This document shows positions 1-12,012 of a stretch of DNA of 12,012 nucleotides, piece by piece. The notes under the pieces are model-generated. The model saw nothing but the letters and a program-made list of their open reading frames with translations. It searched no databases and was not told the DNA's origin. Source of the DNA: Tubiluchus corallicola. Taxonomy: Eukaryota > Animalia > Priapulida. The stretch's first letter is position 1; each line of letters opens with the position of its first letter. The translations under genes and the position numbers were made by a program. The stretch covers positions 356,671 to 368,682 of the forward strand of contig JAQGDQ010000107.1 in assembly GCA_030141605.1 (NCBI GenBank), read 5' to 3'.

Positions 1-1931
1 CTATGTAATCAGGCTCAGTTATGCACTATATAAGTACTACATAGACTATTTTTATTTATACTAATACTTATTTACAATAATATTACAAGGTTAGACATAC
101 ATGTTGAATGACAATAACAGTACAAAATAAAGATTAGACGTCACATTGGTTTACAATAATAATTGCTAGTTTCTATGTAATCAGGCTCAGTTATGCACTA
201 TATAAGTACTACATAGACTATTTTTATTTATACTAATACTTATTTACAATAATATTACAAGGTTAGACATACATGTTGAATGACAATAACAGTACAAAGT
301 AAAGATTAGACGTCACATTGGTTTACAATAATAATTGCTAGTTTCTATGTAATCAGGCTCAGTTATGCACTATATAAGTACTACATAGACTATTTTTATT
401 TATACTAATACTTATTTACAATAATATTACAAGGTTAGGCATACATGTTGAATGACAATAACAGTACAAAATAAAGATTAGACGTCACATTGGTTTACAA
501 TAATAATTGCTAGTTTCTATGTAATCAGGCTCAGTTATGCACTATATAAGTACTACATAGACTATTTTTATTTATACTAATACTTATTTACAATAATATT
601 ACAAGGTTAGACATACTTGTTGAATGACAATAGCAGTACAAAATAAAGATTAGACGTCACATTGGTTTACAATAATAATTGCTAGTTTCTATGTAATCAG
701 GCTCAGTTATGCACTATATAAGTACTACATAGACTATTTTTATTTATACTAATACTTATTTACAATAATATTACAAGGTTAGACATACATGTTGAATGAC
801 AATAACAGTACAAAATAAAGATTAGACGTCACATTGGTTTACAATAATAATTGCTAGTTTCTATGTAATCAGGCTCAGTTATGCACTATATAAGTACTAC
901 ATAGACTATTTTTATTTATACTAATACTTATTTACAATAATATTACAAGGTTAGACATACATGTTGAATGACAATAACAGTACAAAATAAAGATTAGACG
1001 TCACATTGGTTTACAATAATAATTGCTAGTTTCTATGTAATCAGGCTCAGTTATGCACTATATAAGTACTACATAGACTATTTTTATTTATACTAATACT
1101 TATTTACAATAATATTACAAGGTTAGACATACATGTTGAATGACAATAACAGTACAAAATAAAGATTAGACGTCACATTGGTTTACAATAATAATTGCTA
1201 GTTTCTATGTAATCAGGCTCAGTTATGCACTATATAAGTACTACATAGACTATTTTTATTTATACTAATACTTATTTACAATAATATTACAAGGTTAGAC
1301 ATACATGTTGAATGACAATAACAGTACAAAATAAAGATTAGACGTCACATTGGTTTACAATAATAATTGCTAGTTTCTATGTAATCAGGCTCAGTTATGC
1401 ACTATATAAGTACTACATAGACTATTTTTATTTATACTAATACTTATTTACAATAATATTACAAGATTAGACATACTTGTTGAATGACAATAACAGTACA
1501 AAATAAAGATTAGACGTCACATTGGTTTACAATATTGCTAGCTTTCTATGTAATCAGGCTCAGTTATGCACTATATAAGTACTACATAGACTATTTTTAT
1601 TTATACTAATACTTATTTACAATAATATTACAAGATTAGACATACATGTTGAATGACAATAACAGTACAAAATAAAGTTAGACGTCACATTGGTTTACAA
1701 TAATAATTGCTAGTTTCTATGTAATCAGGCTCAGTTATACTATATAAGTACTACATAGACTATTTTTATTTATACTAATACTTATTTACAATAATATTAC
1801 AAGGTTAGACATACATGTTGAATGACAATAACAGTACAAAATAAAGATTAGACGTCACATTTGTTTACAATAATAATTGCTAGTTTCTATGTAATCAGGC
1901 TCAGTTATGCACTATATAAGTACTACATAGA
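1..1931. repeat. 172-bp tandem satellite/minisatellite, about 11.2 near-identical copies, open at the window start
   Basis: CTATGTAATCAGGCTCAG recurs at 1, 173, 345, 517, 689, 861, 1033 and so on (period 172). The first 8 units differ only by scattered substitutions; small indels appear in units 9-11. The array ends after TACATAGA at 1931. Confidence 0.98.
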
Positions 1932-3066: not shown

Positions 3067-3986
3067 GAGACGCTGTCTGAAATTCCATCTCTGGCGCAGC
3101 TGGTGTTTGACGAATGCGAATGTGCTACAGACATTGCTCTGCACACCTTCCTGCAGTACCTTAACCCAGAACTACGCTCCTTCTGCGCTCGAGAGACGCC
3201 CCTCAACAATGCTGCCATGGAAATGATCACCTCTCATTGCCACATGCTACACAACGTCAAGCTGGTCGACTGCCATATGACCAATGAGAGAACCTTGAAA
3301 ATGCTGGGCAGAAACTGCAAGGAGCTAAAGTCCTTGGGGATTTTCTTCACAGAACCATCAGAAGCATGGCTTGTCGAGGACATTCTCAGCATCGTGGTCA
3401 AGTCGATATCCTCTGAGCTCGTGTCCCTTTCGCTTGTGGGTTTCAATAGCATACGCGATTACAGCGTCGAGTACCTGTCGGAATGCTATAGCAATACCTT
3501 GTGCACCATAGACCTGAGCAAATGCCGGACGTTGAGCGACAGTGGCCTAACAGCACTCGTCACCAACTGCAAATTCTTGAGAGACATTGGCATAAACGGG
3601 TGTGACGTGTCCGATCAGGGCGTGAAGACATTGGCAGACAAATGTAACAGACGTCTTCATGATCTAAATATCGGTAATACGCGAATTACTGATGCAGCTG
3701 TGATACGAATAGCAGAAAAGTGCATCAAACTGGCTGGAATTAACTGTGATAATTGTAGAAACATATCAGACGCATCCTTGCACGCTCTGGCGAAACATTG
3801 TCTGCTGTTAGAAAGCATAAACTTCAGCAACACGCTTATTGAGAAGATACCTGTGCTGGTGATGCGCTTGCAGAGACTTCGAAGACTGGTGATATCAAAC
3901 TGCAACAGCCTTTCTTATCCGCCAAAACAGTTTTTGACGTTGGAAGGCATCAAACAGTTTTACAGTGATAGCCAGCTGGATTATCG
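3067..3986 (+). CDS. Internal coding exon A of a Roco-family protein: cysteine-containing (FBXL/AMN1-like) LRR array plus pre-Roc linker
   Basis: Acceptor ttgttttccag|GAG (phase 0) and donor TATCG|gtaggt (phase 2). Roughly 26-aa repeats such as LCTIDLSKCRTLSDSGLTALVTNC, LRDIGINGCDVSDQGVKTLADKC, LHDLNIGNTRITDAAVIRIAEKC and LAGINCDNCRNISDASLHALAKHC. Ends with LSYPPKQFLTLEGIKQFY, resembling the LRR-to-Roc linker. GC content is higher than in the flanks. Confidence 0.92.
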
Positions 3987-4150
3987 GTAGGTAAATCGCC
4001 AACAACATTTTAATTTAAAGCCGATTGAAGTTAAGTATCATATACAACTAAGGTTCCGCTTATGTTTGTGTTACGATTCTTGCGATGATTCAGTGATAGC
4101 TTTCTTGCTTTTATGTGGGTTTGGCTGTGTCTTTGTAAGATGACCGTATA

Positions 4151-4357
4151 CGTAGTACTTTATGCGTACAGTATGCGTAGTACTTTATGCGTACAGTATG
4201 CGTAGTACTTTATGCGTACAGTATGCGTAGTACTTTATGCGTACAGTATGCGTAGTACTTTATGCGTACAGTATGCGTAGTACTTTATGCGTACAGTATG
4301 CGTAGTACTTTATGCGTATGCGTAGTACTTTATGCGTACAGTATGCGTAGTACTTTA
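4151..4357. repeat. 25-bp intronic minisatellite (CGTAGTACTTTATGCGTACAGTATG), about 8.4 copies
   Basis: Units start at 4151, 4176, 4201, 4226, 4251, 4276, 4301, 4321 (preceded by a 5-bp deletion) and 4346. Confidence 0.96.
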
Positions 4358-5009
4358 CCATGTTTATCTTCAAGTCACTTGACTTGCTTTGCCGTATTTT
4401 GGGGATTTTAGGCATTTAGATTAAACAGCTAGCTAATTCACATCATCACTATTAAATTCATTGTTTTGATGAGCATATTGCAAATTTTTTACTGCGTCCG
4501 CACTAAAGCAGCTTACTCCTTGGACTTTTATATAATATTTGCTTTATCTCAACTGTCTATTTCACCGAATTTAAATTTGACTAGTTTATTCTCTTGTACT
4601 TTCTTGTGCCTGGCAGCTATGTAGATTTACGAAAATCTTTAAAACTATTGTTGCCATGAAGAAAGTTTATAGCCCATGTTATATAGGTGTTTTATAATAT
4701 AGGTATAATTAATGCACTGAGCCCGAGTGAAAATTTATAACGCAATAAATCACTAAATTGTCTTAGGCGGACAGACATTTCGCGCCATCGACCTTCCAAA
4801 GAAATTTGAACGATGTAGTTCGAACAAGTTACGTACTTGTATGACAGTTTAAATTACAATAACAACGGGTTATTTTAGCGTTTTCTAGACGGAAACGGCC
4901 TTTTTGGTCACTTAGCCGTTTCGTTCCAAAACACCTCGGTGTTTTATAACTTCTCGACCTTGAAATATAATTCTAAGATGTTTACGTATATATATACGAT
5001 AACACAGAT

Positions 5010-5468
5010 ATTATTATTATTATTATTATGAGTTTATTTCGTATAAAAATATACAGTTACAAAGATAAAGATGTTAATAAAACAGGTAATGCGATGTTAG
5101 TAAAGTAACATATCTACAGACATTCAACTTTGTAATAACCACAAATTGTAGTTCCCTTGCAATTATATTACATTATACAGTGTTGTAAGGAGCTATAATA
5201 GATATCTTAAAACATAATCTTTAAATGAGTTCTTAACCTTTAATTTTACATTTTCGTTTAGATCTACAGTACAACCATATTTAAATCTTAAATTTACTCG
5301 ACTGTTATTTACATAATAGCATAGCTTTGGAATTCTCAATGTGCAAGAGTTTACAATTTTTCTCACAAAGTTTAATTTTCGACTATCTATTAAATAATTC
5401 GCAGGCATTGTGCCACAAAAATACATTAACAATTTGACGCTTTCATTTTGTCTAAAACCGAAAACCGA
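5010..5468 (-). mobile_element. 5'-truncated non-LTR retrotransposon (LINE) 3' end with (TAA)n tail
   Basis: The minus-strand frame reads VFGFRQNESVKLLMYFCGTMPANYLIDSRKLNFVRKI... to the stop at 5193, resembling a LINE ORF2 C-terminus (RTEX-like, from memory). It is followed by a 3' UTR, AATAAA (reverse complement of 5034-5039) and (TAA)n (about 5010-5029). Confidence 0.6.
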
Positions 5469-5550
5469 TTATTGAAATTTAGAACAGTTTTAAGGAATTT
5501 TAGGGTACTGTGGGCTTATAAATGTAACAAGTGTGCTGTGCATATTTTAG

Positions 5551-5696
5551 GTTGAAAGTGATTGTAATGGGTGCGTCTATGAGCGGAAAGACCAGCATGG
5601 TTTCCTCCCTGCTCAATGATCGTCCCACTCAGGTGGAAACCCCAACACACGGAGTAAATGTCATAACATGGAGGTGTTTCAGCGAAAATGGAAACG
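5551..5696 (+). CDS. Coding exon B: Roc GTPase P-loop (G1) and switch I (G2)
   Basis: Acceptor atattttag|G completes CG+G = Arg. Reads RLKVIVMGASMSGKTSMVSSLLNDRPTQVETPTHGVNVITWRCFSENGN, with GxxxxGKT/S and TxGV. Donor AACG|gtacat (phase 1). Not in the ORF track. Confidence 0.92.
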
Positions 5697-5831
5697 GTAC
5701 ATAAACTGTTTTGCTTTTATCACACACCACAAGCGCGCAGTAAATGGAGTAAAATATTGGGGTGTCACATTTTTATATGACATTAAACTCAGTATGAACT
5801 GAAAATAGACAATAAAACAAGACATCACTGT

Positions 5832-6847
5832 CAGGGCTAGATTATGTCCTTTCGGGGCGCCTATGCTAATGAAATTATGGGGCCCCCTCAGACGGAGCCA
5901 TCCTCTAACTCGCCCGTCTTGAATATTTTTTACTCGTGACATATTTCAGCCACATTTACACAGCCTGACGTAAACTTACTGCAAATTCAATATATAAAGT
6001 AGAATAAAAATTCAGTAACTTTTGTTTGTCAATAAAAACATTCTTTAAGAAATACATCTACTTTGTTTGAATTATGAATTTATTCCACAGCAACTCAAAC
6101 ATGCATACAAGTTGTTATTACATTGAAAAAGATAAACTATGCGAGTTACTGTGAGGAGGGGAAGGAGCATTGAGCTTTTGAGTCCTCCTCCAGATAAGTG
6201 AAACAATTGACAATTAACATTGCATTTTCATCAGTTATAACGTACATTAGAACAAAATAAGTTTTGTTAGTAAGTTAAGGTCAGGATGAGTAAAATTGTG
6301 AGTTAATTATACCGTTGTAGTAAGTAATTCTTTGATGCTTTTTTAAATTGATAAAGATTAAGAGTTTTCATTTCACGCGGAATTGATGACCATATTTTAA
6401 TAGCATTATATTTTGATGACTGTTTCATTATATTTGTTTTTGGAAGGGGGAGTACATAGTTCCCGACTGAATATCTTGTGTAATGATCATGTTGATTTGA
6501 AACTGGACTAAAGTATGACTGAAAAGCTGGTGGAAGTAGTGAATTATGATACTGATACATGAAATGAAGACAATACATGTCATATATTTCTTTCACTTTA
6601 AGAGTTTTAACAGACAAGTAAATTATATTTGTGGGATGGTCATACCTTACATGATATATTAGTTTCAGAATTTTGTTCTGGGTAATTTTGAATTGCATTC
6701 GAAATACTATTTATTGCAAATCAAATTAGTTCATATTTCAACGTAACCGTAGTGAAAAAACACATTTTTTTCACCAAGTGTTAGCAAAACTTGAGGCCCC
6801 AAGCTTGAAGCGTCCTAGGCTGTAGCCTGCAGGGTAATCCAGTCTTG
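5832..6847. mobile_element. Degenerate non-autonomous hAT-like DNA element (MITE) interrupted by a LINE
   Basis: Imperfect TIRs CAGGGCTAGATTA (5832-5844) and TAATCCAGTCTTG (6835-6847; 10/13 match). Subterminal GGGGCGCC/GGGGCCCC/GAGGCCCC motifs. Partial 8-bp TSD ATCACTGT (5824-5831) vs ATCACACA (6848-6855). Confidence 0.6.
6070..6698 (-). mobile_element. 5'-truncated LINE (CR1/L2 group, Crack/Daphne-like): ORF2 C-terminus plus 3' UTR
   Basis: ORF 6303-6698 contains FMYQYHNSLLPPAF..HDHYTR..KYNAIKIWSSIP..FKK, the typical post-RT C-terminus (HxYxTR, WNxLP-like). Minus-strand AATAAA at about 6079-6084. Confidence 0.85.
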
Positions 6848-7049
6848 ATCACACAGTGCAGTATAATACAATCCATTTATTAACCCAATCAAATATTTGA
6901 GATTTTTATTCTTTTTGCCACAGTCTAACAAAGCCGTAACTGAAACTTCATTTACATAATAGCATTTTAGAACACAGCAAGTTAAATTGTAACACGGTTT
7001 TCGAATGGATATTTGTGAATAAGAACAAACCACGCTAAGGATTCTGCTA

Positions 7050-7602
7050 GGGCTCCGACGTTTTTATTTAAATACATCAACAATATTAACACGCCCTTCA
7101 TCAAAAATAAGCTTCCACTCCTCTTGGAGCCAACATTAAATCCAAGAACACACAATATTAAACAAACACGCACTAATAACAAATACGGCAACAATTCTAT
7201 CACTGAACAAGAAGTTCAGCTTTGGAATACCCTGCCATCAAATTTAAAACAAATCAAGTCTTTCGACGAATTCGAATCAAAATTAAAAATACATACATTA
7301 AATCGTTTTGAAAACCCAACATACGTAAACGATAATATATATTCATCCACAAATTTTATTTACCCGCGTCCATTTTAAATTGTATGTATATATTGCATAT
7401 AGTCTATTATAATTTCCGTGTAATATTATAATGTACATTTTGTTTTAAATTTTTGGCACAGTAGTTTTTAGTTTCCACTGGACTCATTTGCCTTTAACAG
7501 TTGTGTGAATTTTATTCTCATGCTGCGATGTTCTTTTATGCTTTTATAATTATGAATATCGATTTTTTATGGCAAATAAAGTTTATTATATATATATATA
7601 TA
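7050..7602 (+). mobile_element. Degenerate 5'-truncated LINE (CR1/L2 group) 3' end
   Basis: ORF 7124-7378 contains RTNNKYGNNSI..QLWNTLPSNLKQIKSFDEFESKLK (WNxLP motif). T-rich 3' UTR, AATAAA at 7575-7580, then an (AT)n tail. The 5' boundary is approximate. Confidence 0.75.
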
Positions 7603-7664
7603 TCCTACTAATCCTACGATTGTTGCTGCTTTTATATGTTTTTTCTTTTCTGGAAATTTTTCAG

Positions 7665-7858
7665 CAAGCTTAGTGGGTCGTTCTCTGACGCAGTCCGAAA
7701 GAGAGCTAACCTTGGAGATATGGGACTTGTCAGGAAGAGAAATTTACCAGGGTGTGAATCAGTTTCTTCTTACACAGGGAGCACTCTTTGTGGTCGTATT
7801 TAGCTTGACCGATGGTCATCATGCAATTGAGCAATATATAAACGCCATACAAGCCAAG
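7665..7858 (+). CDS. Coding exon C: Roc switch II (G3) region
   Basis: Acceptor aatttttcag|CA completes G+CA = Ala (phase 1). Reads ASLVGRSLTQSERELTLEIWDLSGREIYQGVNQFLLTQGALFVVVFSLTDGHHAIEQYINAIQAK, matching the Roc WDxxG....F.T..AL...V pattern. Donor AAG|gtaaaa (phase 0). Confidence 0.93.
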
Positions 7859-7980
7859 GTAAAACAGGTGAATGGGGGACTTGCAATTAATAAATATAAA
7901 GTCATAATTATAGAATTGGGCTTTATTAATTATTTATAATCTTAATTTCAAGTTTATTATTAAAGATTGAAGAAACCTAC

Positions 7981-8092
7981 ATACATTTTGACATCAAACT
8001 CACTCGAAAGAAAGTCGGGACAAACCTAGATTTGAACCAGGGTCCTCTCGCTTACAAAACGAACATCGTGACAATCAGACAACCATGCCCCC
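7981..8092 (-). pseudogene. tRNA-derived element or tRNA pseudogene (TGT anticodon-like loop), copy 1
   Basis: Reverse complement reads GGGCATG..GTC..GAT..TTCGT-TTTGTAA-GCGAG-AGGAC-CCTGG-TTCAAAT-CTAGG-TTTGTCC. T arm and anticodon arm pair; the D-loop lacks GG. Confidence 0.65.
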
Positions 8093-8301
8093 AGTGTCAG
8101 TAATCACTGACGTAACCCACTCGGTGTAGTCTGCCAGCAATTCAGCATTTCTAAGTCAGTTGTCTCATGGTAGGTAATTACGAATCAATCAAATTAAGTA
8201 GTTCTAATTATTTCAGTAGTAAATAAATTCCAAAAAATAATCAAATTAACCTATATATTATATATTATATTATATTATATATATATATTAATAAAAATTA
8301 C

Positions 8302-8304
8302 TAC

Positions 8305-8337
<33 letters not shown>

Positions 8338-8342
8338 CACGT

Positions 8343-8378
<36 letters not shown>

Positions 8379-8380
8379 AT
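8302..8380. repeat. Compound (AT)n/(TG)n/(CG) microsatellite, fully alternating purine-pyrimidine
   Basis: tacatatatatatgtgtg...gtgcacgtgtgtgcgtgtgcgcgtgtgcgtgtgcgtgtgtgtat with no break in R/Y alternation. Confidence 0.9.
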
Positions 8381-8633
8381 TGTTAGGGGGGCAAAATGCC
8401 ATTTATTTTCGACCCCCTCTACATTGTGATGGTTCGATCCATTACGAAGCCATTGCATATCAGCATTGCATAGCAGCTATAAGTAGCTGGTATGGAATGG
8501 CCTCGGCGGTAGTCAAGATCAGCATGAGAAATTCAGGAAAAGATTCTTGCTAGTTTTCATCTTAATTTTCTGTTTAATTTTTTTATATTTCTTCTCTATT
8601 TTCACATCTACAACATTTGTCTGCAACATGGTT

Positions 8634-8664
8634 TGGCTGATCCAGATTTGAACCCTGGACCTCT
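8634..8664 (-). pseudogene. Fragment resembling the 3' half of a tRNA (B-box)
   Basis: Reverse complement AAGAGGTCCAGGGTTCAAATCTGGATCAGCC resembles the variable loop, T arm and acceptor 3' strand of a tRNA-Pro-like body. Confidence 0.4.
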
Positions 8665-8769
8665 TAGCCGCCTCCGCAACAATATGTAGCATGAAATACA
8701 TTAACCGACGAATTGATTAGCCATCAATAGGGATTGAAATCATGGAATTAACATCCGTCATGATGACCA

Positions 8770-8898
8770 GGGCATGACCGAGTAGTGGTCATGACGCTTC
8801 GCCTTGTAAGTAAGAGAGATTCCTGGTTCAAATGCAAGTTTGTATCCCAACTTTTTCACATATCCTTTCTTGCGGGAGAGCTTGGTTTCAAAATGAAT
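8770..8898 (+). pseudogene. tRNA-derived element or tRNA pseudogene, copy 2 (inverted relative to copy 1)
   Basis: GGGCATGACCGAGTAGTGGTCATGACGCTTCGC-CTTGTAA-GTAAG..CCTGGTTCAAAT..TTTGTATCCC followed by T5 (8852-8856). Downstream TTTCTTGCGGGAGAGCTTGGTTTCAAAATGAAT matches the reverse complement of 7981-8013. Confidence 0.65.
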
Positions 8899-9439
8899 CA
8901 ATTGCACATTTATCCCATCACTTAGGCGTTGTTTTCTATAATTTCCTACTATATTTTACTCATTTCATTGTGGGCCTCCGCATTCCATTGTTTTCATGAA
9001 CCAAAACACATGCAAACAGAAATGCAATGTGTTCTTATATTTGCTTGCTTCACACAACTTTGGGAGGCTACCTCAATTAGTTAATGATAACAATAATTTG
9101 TATACAATTGTACACAACGTTACACTGTTTTACTTCACCACTTGTATACAAAGTTACGTTGTTTTACTTACGTCGAATCTCGTACATTCGTGTTCTCATA
9201 TTTGGAAGCAATCGTACAAAATCTGTAATAACTGCCAAAGTTATTATTAGAATTCGTGTAAAATACAAATCTGCTTAGAAAAGGTAGCCACAGCGTGAAA
9301 ATGTTAAGACGTTTCCTGGAGAGAAAAAAACCGCTCAAACGATATGCATAATTAAGTCATAAATCATTATAACCAGCAGCGCTGCAGCTGCCACCTAGTT
9401 ATAAGTTTGCGCCGCTACATATAAAACTCACTGCAAACG

Positions 9440-9484
9440 TTTATAGGACACGTAACCTATCAATAAAATGATATAATTATTCTC
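9440..9484 (+). repeat. 45-bp partial copy of the 9725 repeat end
   Basis: TTTATAGGACACGTAACCTATCAATAAAATGATATAATTATTCTC matches 9725-9769 with 2 mismatches. Confidence 0.85.
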
Positions 9485-9724
9485 ACAACGCGGTTAGTTT
9501 TATACTTTGTCTCAGGTCTCTTATGCGACAGCAGATAGAGAGATAATAATTGCATTTAAACAGCAAATGCATTTAAAAAAAGCTCACTGTAACAGAGGAG
9601 AAACCACAATGTAGAGGTTGTGGCATTTTTATATTTTTTCCGCATATATATATATAACGTTATATTTATGAGTATGAGTATGACTAACCAAGAGAACTAA
9701 TATGAAAGCCTATACATATATTTA

Positions 9725-9773
9725 TTTATAGGAAACGTGACCTATCAATAAAATGATATAATTATTCTCTCTC

Positions 9774-9844
<71 letters not shown>

Positions 9845-9905
9845 TCTATATGTAATATATATAATATCTAATTAGTTTCGTAGGGGCAACAAAACTTATA
9901 TATAT
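9725..9905 (+). repeat. Left arm of a long inverted repeat, containing (CT)n and (AT)n microsatellites
   Basis: CAATAAAATGATATAATTATTCTC-(CT)n(AT)n-TAAATCTATATGTAATATATATAATATCTAATTAGTTTCGTAGGGGCAACAAAACTTATAT is the near reverse complement of 11762-11895. Confidence 0.85.
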
Positions 9906-10511
9906 ATATGTAGAGCATCTCATTATATTTCATGACATTAAAATAAATATATTTAAACGCGAAATGCTTGAAACGTTTTTTAGACAAATTTAGTTGATCA
10001 TTAATAGTAAAATATTTGGTTAAAGTCTGTTTATTCTTGTGGTTAATGCTGCTTGCTGATTATTGTTGTTTATTGTGCGGCGTGTGAGGTAGCCACGATG
10101 GGCATAGCAAACTATAGCCGGTCGAACATCAGCTGGTCACGTGATGCCACACCTAACTAGGCTTCTATCCACGACGATAGTTTAATCTTGCATCGTCAAG
10201 CATTTAATCTTGAATTATTAATTTAATAATTTAATCACCAATTTAATCAATATCATTATTTAACACAGCTTTGCTTTAGCTTAATCGATTCCTTCTTCCC
10301 TTTATCGTCTGAGTCTGACAGCTTTGCGTCGGTCTCAACTTGATTAAAATAAGAAAAATAATGACTGTAACGTCGTTATGAATTTGTAAATCATCTGTTG
10401 GAATGTACGATCGAACTTTCACGTGATTACATTTATGACGTTCCAAAATATGCAGCTTCCCGTCTTTGCAACTGCACAATGTATCATAACATATTCTGGA
10501 CTATATTAAAT

Positions 10512-10791
10512 AAATCAAATCAAATCAGATCAGATCAGATCAAATCAAATCAAATCAAATCAAATCAAATCAAATCAAATCAAATCAAATCAAATCAAAT
10601 CAAATCAAATCAAATCAAATCAAATCAAATCAAATCAAATCAAATCAAATCAAATCAAATCAAATCAAATCAAATCAAATCAAATCAAATCAAATCAAAT
10701 CAAATCAAATCAAATCAAATCAAATCAAATCAAATCAAATCAAATCAAATCAAATCAAATCAAATCAAATCAAATCAAATCAAATCAAATC
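10512..10791. repeat. (AAATC)n pentanucleotide microsatellite, about 56 units
   Basis: 280 bp of CAAAT repeats with three CAGAT variants at 10526-10540. Confidence 0.98.
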
Positions 10792-11043
10792 ATTTGTTTT
10801 TCATCCCAAAAACAATACAAAGAAAAATAGATATAAATAAAAAAAGCCAAACAAATGGGAAGGGATGGCGAAAAACATTAGTTATCAAATCAGCCGCCAC
10901 AAACCGAGTATTAAATCAGTATTATGCATTGCTGTAATTACATATTAATACATAAAACATAAAATACATTCTATACATAAAATTTTCTTATTTTTAACTA
11001 AGAAAACGGAAATAAAATTACCAGAAACCAACAAAATTGTTAC

Positions 11044-11295
11044 TATAGGTTTTACACGTCAAATGTAGACCTACGTTAAGTCAAATGTAGATTTAGGTAA
11101 TTCAAATGTGTCTTGGTAACTCAAATGTAGCGTTTGGTAGTTCAAATGTGTTAACAATGGTTTTCAACAAATCTTAAGCGTTTTCGGTAAGTCAAATGTA
11201 GACACATGTCAAGTCAAATGTCCTATGTCTACATTTGACTTACCTAAGTCACATTTGAACTTTCCCGTGTCTACATTTGACGTGTAAAACCTATA
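11044..11295. mobile_element. MITE with perfect 27-bp terminal inverted repeats (including flanking TA) and 10 internal TCAAATGT motifs
   Basis: TATAGGTTTTACACGTCAAATGTAGAC (11044-11070) and GTCTACATTTGACGTGTAAAACCTATA (11269-11295) are exact reverse complements. No coding capacity. Confidence 0.88.
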
Positions 11296-11761
11296 TAATA
11301 TTGACTTAAATATTAATATTTCATTTCAACTTGAAATAACAATATGAAAATATAACTGTTTATGATATCATGCAAATCATGTTACAGATCACTACAGAGC
11401 CGCGTTATATAAAACTGTGTTTGAAGAGAATTCATCGCAAATTGCAAGGTAGAAAAATCTAACGAATTATAGGCTAATTAAGTATCAACTGACGATGGAA
11501 TGCTGTCATTATTCTTGTTTAAATTTTACTGATAGCAACTTGTGCAAACATCCCACTCGCTAGTAATTAGATACGTAATAGTTAAATATGCAACCAAGCA
11601 GGAAGATCTGCCTCTCATCGTTCTGTTATTTGGGGCGGGTGGCTACTTGTCTGCTGTAGCCTATAGGCTTCACCGCATCACTGCCAGAACATGTCACAAG
11701 TGTGGACGTAGGGGTGGCGGCAAAAAATACTTATGTATAAATAAACTTATAAGTAATATAA

Positions 11762-11893
11762 ATATATAAGTTTTCGTTGCCTCTACGAAACTAATTACAT
11801 ATTATATATATTACATATAGATTTAATATATATATATATATTATATATATATAGAGAATAATTATATCATTTTATTGTTGTTTTACGTGTCTA

Positions 11894-11895
<2 letters not shown>
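11762..11895 (-). repeat. Right arm of the long inverted repeat (pairs with 9725-9905)
   Basis: TATAAGTTTTCGTTGCCTCTACGAAACTAATTACATATTATATATATTACATATAGATTTAA-(TA)n-GAGAATAATTATATCATTTTATTG..ACGTGTCTATA. Confidence 0.85.

Positions 11896-12012
<117 letters not shown>

Follow-up and report, generated by a model that had tools for sequence, protein, structure and literature searches.

A window of 12,012 nucleotides (nt) from the priapulid Tubiluchus corallicola (GenBank assembly GCA_030141605.1, contig JAQGDQ010000107.1, positions 356,671 to 368,682) carries three exons of a gene in which leucine-rich repeats (LRRs) precede a Roc GTPase domain. With somewhat more confidence than doubt, we assign this gene to a kinase-less family of Roco GTPases that spans several bilaterian phyla, is likely anchored to membranes by a prenylated C-terminus, and likely acts as a GTP-controlled scaffold whose LRRs hold a fixed partner. 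Visible in the window itself are the LRRs, the G1 motif, the switch-I Thr, and the G3 motif with an LRRK2-type Arg; the N-terminus, G4 and G5, a COR-like region, the absence of a kinase, and a C-terminal CaaX motif come from relatives only. Positions refer to the window unless another locus is named.

Three exons of an LRR-Roc gene

The spliced LRR-Roc gene proposed in the preliminary description of this window holds up in its structure. Each of the three exons follows a pyrimidine-rich AG acceptor and runs up to a GT donor, their phases agree (0/2, 2/1, and 1/0; Table 1), and together they form 1,260 nt, or 420 codons, free of stops; the remaining frames contain 31 and 22. GC content is 0.45 to 0.48 in the exons versus 0.32 in each intron. 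When four long relatives from other animals (see below) are used as tblastn queries, the three exons are the three best matches, in order, for every one of them; exons 2 and 3 each align to all four, and the spliced product shares 29 to 39% identity with them over 380 to 419 columns, with the first junction free of gaps. The position of intron 1 is conserved, in that 7 of 18 relatives terminate on the Arg that closes exon 1 of the window (of the rest, 8 continue into sequence that is not Roc-like and 3 are spliced models). Both predicted junctions thus have the support of splice sites and homology. One sequencing run presumed to be RNA and a DNA run with an identical label leave the exons uncovered, and of the contig joints listed, in a comparison that did not reach exon 3, none matches either intron, which counts neither for nor against the junctions. 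An alternative exon-1 donor at 3990 was rejected, as it leads to an immediate stop.

Of the eight exon-1 differences listed for a second sample (run X3; nine in the contig altogether), seven are silent against an expected 22 to 29%, giving a P of 0.0002 to 0.003 even with the unlisted ninth taken as an amino-acid change. That the exons are remnants of a truncated or dead gene, or parts of separate genes, is highly improbable: although the first and fourth exons were not found within the window, the frame is open, the splice sites are canonical, four relatives are co-linear, the intron position is conserved, and variation is biased toward silent change. Moreover, introns here run to 1.5 to 2 kb, and the first intron of the related locus L001 to 3.5 kb, so the missing exons can lie outside the window.

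Candidates for these exons within the window were rejected. Nine ATG-to-GT, phase-0 candidates for the first exon, all before 3040, score −0.25 or lower against the relatives, which score 21 to 26 among themselves; the candidate at 2621 to 2683 (ATG start, 21 codons, a run of 14 G, phase-0 GT donor) resembles the relatives' first exons no better than chance. For the G4 exon, tblastn of 7859 to 12012 gave no convincing match, and five AG/GT-bounded candidates show no similarity to the relatives.

Exon 1 matches the Pfam models LRR_4 and LRR_6. In the AlphaFold model of the relative P0012, where predicted local distance difference test (pLDDT) values of the LRR region are mostly 80 to 97, the predicted horseshoe consists of 12 repeats; the central ones are of the cysteine-containing, 26-residue type found in FBXL proteins, and only the last two approach the typical (LRR_1/LRR_8) class that makes up the array of MFHAS1. 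The FBXL-type class and the change to a Roco-style cap inside one exon, both read from the sequence in the preliminary description, are confirmed: the LRR model is closer in fold (VIA, Z scores) to FBXL2 (33.9), FBXL17 (31.2), and Rad7 (28.3) than to SDS22 (22.4) or the LRR region of the C. tepidum Roco (22.1), and it superimposes on FBXL2 with a root mean square deviation (rmsd) of 2.5 Å over 305 residues. A special kinship to FBXL2 was nevertheless rejected as unproven, since FBXL2 is also the top PDB match of a distant protein, P0042, and its rank therefore shows LRR class rather than descent.

Exons 2 and 3 each pass the Pfam Roc (PF08477) cut-off of 27 bits on their own, covering model positions 1 to 43 and 51 to 103, as the domain scan suggested in the preliminary description was expected to find. 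The best PDB match of exon 3 is the LRRK2 Roc domain, to which it aligns without gaps over residues 1384 to 1428; this alignment fixes the register of the Arg that follows G3, which falls on R1398 (the Q61-equivalent position). An Arg occupies this position in all five family Roc domains (window included), versus a Gln in all four outside Rocos examined. The family Roc profile likewise has LRRK2 as its best PDB match (E, ~1e-18), ahead of the C. tepidum Roco (5e-13) and LRRK1 (2e-6). G1 and G3 are intact in five of five members, G4 reads THAD in two of three, and the model of P0012 has a predicted two-helix hairpin of roughly 55 residues (465 to 519) between G4 and G5. Among the 20 UniProt Rocos surveyed in a 2026 preprint (PMC13345514), LRRK2 alone is reported to have an Arg at the R1398 position, and that Arg is modelled as a gamma-phosphate sensor. 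The Arg of the present family and R1398 could represent either convergence or common descent.

Table 1. Exons and introns of the LRR-Roc gene in the window and exons of the related metagenomic locus L001
Sequence	Feature	Coordinates	Strand	Details
Window	Large coding exon (exon 1), LRR repeats 2-12 and pre-Roc cap	3067..3986	+	920 nt; phase 0 / phase 2
Window	Intron 1, GT..AG	3987..5550	+	Phase 2; contains 25-bp tandem array and high-copy repeats
Window	Roc exon 2, G1 (GASMSGKT) and switch-I Thr (PTHGV)	5551..5696	+	146 nt; Pfam Roc 30.4 bits
Window	Intron 2, GT..AG	5697..7664	+	Phase 1; contains remnants of high-copy repeats
Window	Roc exon 3, G3 (WDLSGR)	7665..7858	+	194 nt; Pfam Roc 30.3 bits; phase-0 donor just ahead of G4 strand
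L001	First coding exon, ATG	336-389		18 codons; 3.5 kb upstream of large exon
L001	Large LRR exon	3941-4875		Same boundaries as window exon

Relatives in distant phyla

Word-indexed searches with exon 1 returned generic LRR proteins only (7 and 2 matches) and missed the real family, which was recovered by an index-free phmmer search, where 15 of 150 returned rows match exon 1 in a single stretch. Named members come from Saccoglossus kowalevskii (P0010), Owenia fusiformis (P0012), Tubulanus polymorphus (P0020), and Lamellibrachia satsuma (P0159), and a profile search added Hypsibius exemplaris (P0169; 1,247 amino acids [aa]). Relatives that are co-linear across both junctions thus include a hemichordate, two annelids, a nemertean, and a tardigrade, representing Deuterostomia, Spiralia, and Ecdysozoa, and all four spliced gene models run from LRR to Roc in register with the splice in the window. 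A profile built from the LRR regions of 15 members, the window left out, gives the window 294 bits in one stretch; among 187 fetched proteins, 28 (including the 15 in the profile) score 224 to 425 bits in one stretch and the next protein scores 114, a gap by which we consider the family discrete. A scan of metagenomes with an LRR pattern gave two loci out of 30 matches, one an unrelated LRR gene (L002) and the other a family member (L001), whose large exon has a phase-0 acceptor and a phase-2 GT donor at boundaries identical to those of exon 1 in the window.

Because relatives in distant phyla and L001 share both the gene and the intron boundary, we consider it likely that the gene and its first intron predate the protostome-deuterostome split. 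The lineage-specific chimera suggested in the preliminary description is accordingly not supported. No description of the family was found in the literature searched, although members may feature in sources beyond its reach: Marin's primary work on how animal Rocos evolved, the roughly forty animal domain combinations in PMC11378527 (Fig. 2), PMC13345514 (Fig. S1), or supplements. No cnidarian, sponge, arthropod, or vertebrate protein is among the named matches, a metagenome scan with Roc-COR patterns gave 383 matches and no relatives, and NCBIfam yielded weak, generic matches only. An LRR tree built from 23 rows leaves 13 of its 20 inner branches open and gives no verdict on monophyly.

Database labels of relatives do mislead, as had been anticipated: the Saccoglossus protein is labelled "F-box/LRR-repeat protein 20-like" and the Hypsibius protein "F-box/LRR-repeat protein 15-like." The upstream F-box that the preliminary description envisaged was, however, matched by Pfam neither in 16 family proteins (most of them single-exon open reading frames [ORFs]) nor in the four long models. 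The Owenia, Tubulanus, and Saccoglossus models and L001 begin 17 to 22 residues ahead of the large LRR exon, and in the P0012 model this piece folds as the first of the 12 LRR strands; Hypsibius has about 95 extra residues of low complexity. The relatives scanned therefore lack the N-terminal F-box of FBXL proteins. These data bear on an alternative in which the protein is an FBXL-derived substrate receptor coupling a ubiquitin ligase to a GTP switch, either through a Roc-COR insertion that separated the LRRs of an FBXL2/20-like gene from its CaaX tail or as a Rad7-like adaptor without an F-box. It is indeed FBXL2, FBXL17, and Rad7 that the LRR region matches best in fold and in sequence, FBXL2 is prenylated at its CaaX and has palmitoylated cysteines beside it (PMC9988375; lipidation also in PMC7729025), and the Tubulanus protein has a Cys two residues ahead of its CaaX Cys. 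Against this stand the want of an F-box in every scanned member, the little room at the N-terminus, and the P0042 control, and we judge the alternative distinctly improbable; the ubiquitin-ligase reading, like the lineage-specific one, is not supported.

Predicted lipid anchor and proposed mechanism

Beyond Roc, the relatives share some 400 further residues, in which a divergent COR domain is likely present; the lines of evidence agree with one another but are individually weak. Pfam matches lie below the cut-off (COR-A, E of 0.007 in P0169; COR-B, E of 0.013 in P0020), hhalign matches the family profile to a Roc-COR-kinase protein with a probability of 98.4 over positions 173 to 876, and Foldseek produces alignments of 730 to 850 columns to LRRK1, the C. 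tepidum Roco, and LRRK2. Both full-length relatives, P0020 and P0169, are laid out as LRR, Roc, divergent COR, and a long tail, and Pfam detects no kinase, death, or WD40 domain in either at E values up to 10. An N-terminal LRR region without a kinase or death domain is the layout of group-1 Rocos, the LRR being taken here from the window and the rest from the relatives. In both, a lysine run follows COR, a basic patch and a low-complexity tail are present, and the poorly conserved tails end in a CaaX motif, CNIM in one and CNIL in the other. A CaaX with Met in the last position favors farnesylation and one with Leu geranylgeranylation; CNIM would thus be farnesylated and CNIL geranylgeranylated.

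The mechanism that we favor is pieced together from these features, and prenylation, a GTPase cycle, and partner binding are its inferred elements. The three exons would supply the LRR region and the first two thirds of Roc. The prenylated CaaX tail would tether the protein to a membrane; nucleotide sensed at switch II would drive a conformational or dimer-monomer cycle of Roc-COR, as in other Rocos, whose Roc-COR conformation or dimer state responds to nucleotide (PMC6337361, PMC13345514); and this cycle would expose or hide the binding face of the LRRs, controlling the access of a fixed partner. From a prenyl anchor combined with such a cycle, the output would be a partner bound or released at the membrane, as opposed to phosphorylation or Skp1-Cullin-F-box (SCF) ubiquitination. 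The conserved LRR array in a single exon and its mostly silent variation would fit a stable partner.

Several observations weigh against this interpretation. Neither the first coding exon nor G4/G5, COR, and the C-terminus of the gene were found within the window; as a consequence, the CaaX and the absence of a kinase are borrowed from two gene models. The strand positions of the putative partner-binding LRRs are conserved only moderately. Some G motifs are degenerate, with SRRN as G4 in Tubulanus and no switch-I Thr in Hypsibius. In addition to the sub-threshold Pfam matches for COR, both models have pLDDT below 50 in that region, and superposition on solved Rocos gives a whole-chain rmsd above 20 Å. 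Finally, although the CaaX pattern ends just 1 of 185 other fetched proteins (P0126, itself an LRR-Roc protein), which favors the interpretation, this control is rough because many of the 185 are truncated ORFs.

The degenerate motifs, together with the very divergent COR and the very low GTPase activity of MFHAS1 (PMC6337361), could instead indicate a degenerate scaffold that binds nucleotide but hydrolyzes it poorly, or a pseudo-GTPase, in which Roc-COR serves mainly as a dimerization platform for a membrane-anchored LRR. Given that G1 and G3 are intact in all five members, that G4 is THAD in two of three, and that the switch-II Arg is kept in three superphyla, this is unlikely, though it deserves some weight. 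An intracellular innate-immune sensor, in which the LRRs detect a foreign molecule and Roc-COR relays the signal, is quite unlikely: the group-1 layout is shared with brown-algal LRR-ROCOs, for which an immune role has been proposed (PMC11378527), and TIR-bearing ROCO proteins occur in Aplysia (PMC9334734), but repeats 2 to 12 lie in one exon and their number is fixed across phyla, variation in the second sample is mostly silent, and TIR, death, or other effector domains are absent from both full-length members.

Repeats in the window and place among Roco proteins

The window as a whole consists of AT-rich DNA of animal type and contains both satellites and high-copy repeats. A 172-bp satellite (11.3 copies, 98% identical) occupies 1 to 1931; the missing first coding exon of the gene may be located on its far side. 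Intronic repeats at 4982 to 5470, 5797 to 6774, and 6938 to 7560 have summed contig depths from thousands to more than 20,000 (run X1). Two ORFs, at 6306 to 6710 (− strand) and 7019 to 7375 (+ strand), resemble tail remnants of the reverse transcriptase of a long interspersed nuclear element, with no match in Pfam. Heads resembling tRNA by eye, probably of tRNA-derived short interspersed nuclear elements, occur at about 2245 to 2370, 8010 to 8120, 8630 to 8680, and 8770 to 8850; ARAGORN finds no tRNA genes in the window. Also present are a 25-bp tandem array (8.7 copies, 4146 to 4357) and an AAATC microsatellite (57 copies, 10508 to 10792).

Group-1 Rocos, as described in PMC6337361, have the order LRR-Roc-COR without a kinase and include vertebrate MFHAS1, plant Tornado1, and the C. 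tepidum Roco. The present family shares this domain order and compares with known and newly detected proteins as follows.

(i) MFHAS1. The nearest ESM Atlas clusters of P0020, compared by cluster names, are those of MFHAS1 (0.95, 0.95, and 0.94), followed by bacterial Rocos and Tornado 1. In the MFHAS1 clusters the LRRs are of the typical class (LRR_1/LRR_8 in 97 to 100%); the present family instead combines FBXL-type repeats with a long tail and a CaaX. According to PMC4104024, MFHAS1 is reported from deuterostomes only and the Rocos listed for protostomes are LRRK and DAPK1; the present family also occurs in protostomes. The TIR-bearing ROCOs of Aplysia (PMC9334734) differ from it in architecture.

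(ii) LRRK1 and LRRK2. LRRK2 shares the Arg at the R1398/Q61 position and is the best PDB match of the family Roc, but the full-length relatives lack its kinase, WD40, ankyrin, and armadillo regions, have another LRR class, and carry a helical insert between G4 and G5. The kinase and WD40 that follow COR in LRRK1 and LRRK2 are absent from P0020 and P0169, both of which end in a CaaX. LRRK2 is recruited by Rabs (PMC6337361), whereas the family has a predicted lipid anchor of its own.

(iii) FBXL2 and FBXL20. These SCF substrate receptors share the LRR fold, and FBXL2 has a C-terminal CaaX (PMC9988375); the family differs in having no F-box and in having Roc-COR.

(iv) Distant LRR-Roc proteins. 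A scan with the Roc-COR profile of the family across every fetched protein brought up three, P0126 and P0042 (eukaryote-like by our reading) and the bacteria-like P0011, in which cysteine-containing LRRs precede Roc as they do in the family, and P0126 and P0042 also share the late switch to typical LRRs before Roc. Uniqueness of the combination of LRR_CC with Roc is therefore not supported. These proteins differ from the family in their near-identical, expanded repeats, a Gln after G3, and 21 to 24% identity to P0012, and they are likely independent assemblies. In P0126 (from Logan; 1,395 aa), expanded cysteine-containing LRRs are accompanied by Roc and a COR-like region, and the protein ends in a CaaX that has a Cys next to it; it is possibly a second, independent prenylated Roco. 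The bacteria-like Roco P0011 (European Nucleotide Archive, ENA) has about 19 cysteine-containing LRR units, and its COR-A is clear (44 bits); a scan of prokaryote genomes (GTDB) found no relatives of it among 81. A further ENA protein, P0073, has repeated blocks of cysteine-containing LRR, typical LRR, and Roco-style cap and no Roc domain.

Brown-algal group-4 ROCOs carry non-typical, ribonuclease inhibitor (RI)-type LRRs (PMC11378527), and Tornado 1 clusters in ESM Atlas carry LRR_TMOD-LMOD/LRR_6 repeats. With P0126, P0042, and P0011, these cases make the swapping of LRR class ahead of a conserved Roco cap a recurrent event. What is distinctive here is not the combination of LRR class and Roc but a conserved bilaterian family with a CaaX and the LRRK2-type Arg.

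We therefore regard the gene as a variant of the group-1 Rocos and as likely an old bilaterian, prenylated, kinase-less GTPase scaffold. If the conserved family stands, it would add to the animal Roco inventory kinase-less members from annelids, a nemertean, a tardigrade, and a hemichordate. Since Roc domains usually reside in large proteins brought to membranes by Rab partners, one would not expect a Roco to carry a Ras-like lipid tail, and no CaaX-anchored Roco turned up in the literature searched. More tentatively, and with a probability that we place a little short of even, the family may constitute a fifth ancient lineage of animal Rocos beside LRRK, DAPK, and MFHAS1 (self-anchoring, prenylated, kinase-less, and equipped with the LRRK2 switch-II Arg), one missed on account of the F-box/LRR names given to its members in databases; it would then offer a natural, kinase-free test system for the LRRK2-type switch on membranes. 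The family runs counter to the claim in PMC13345514 that an R1398-type Arg occurs in LRRK2 alone, and it provides a kinase-free protein in which to ask whether this Arg senses the gamma-phosphate, a question relevant to R1398H, a variant that is protective in Parkinson's disease.

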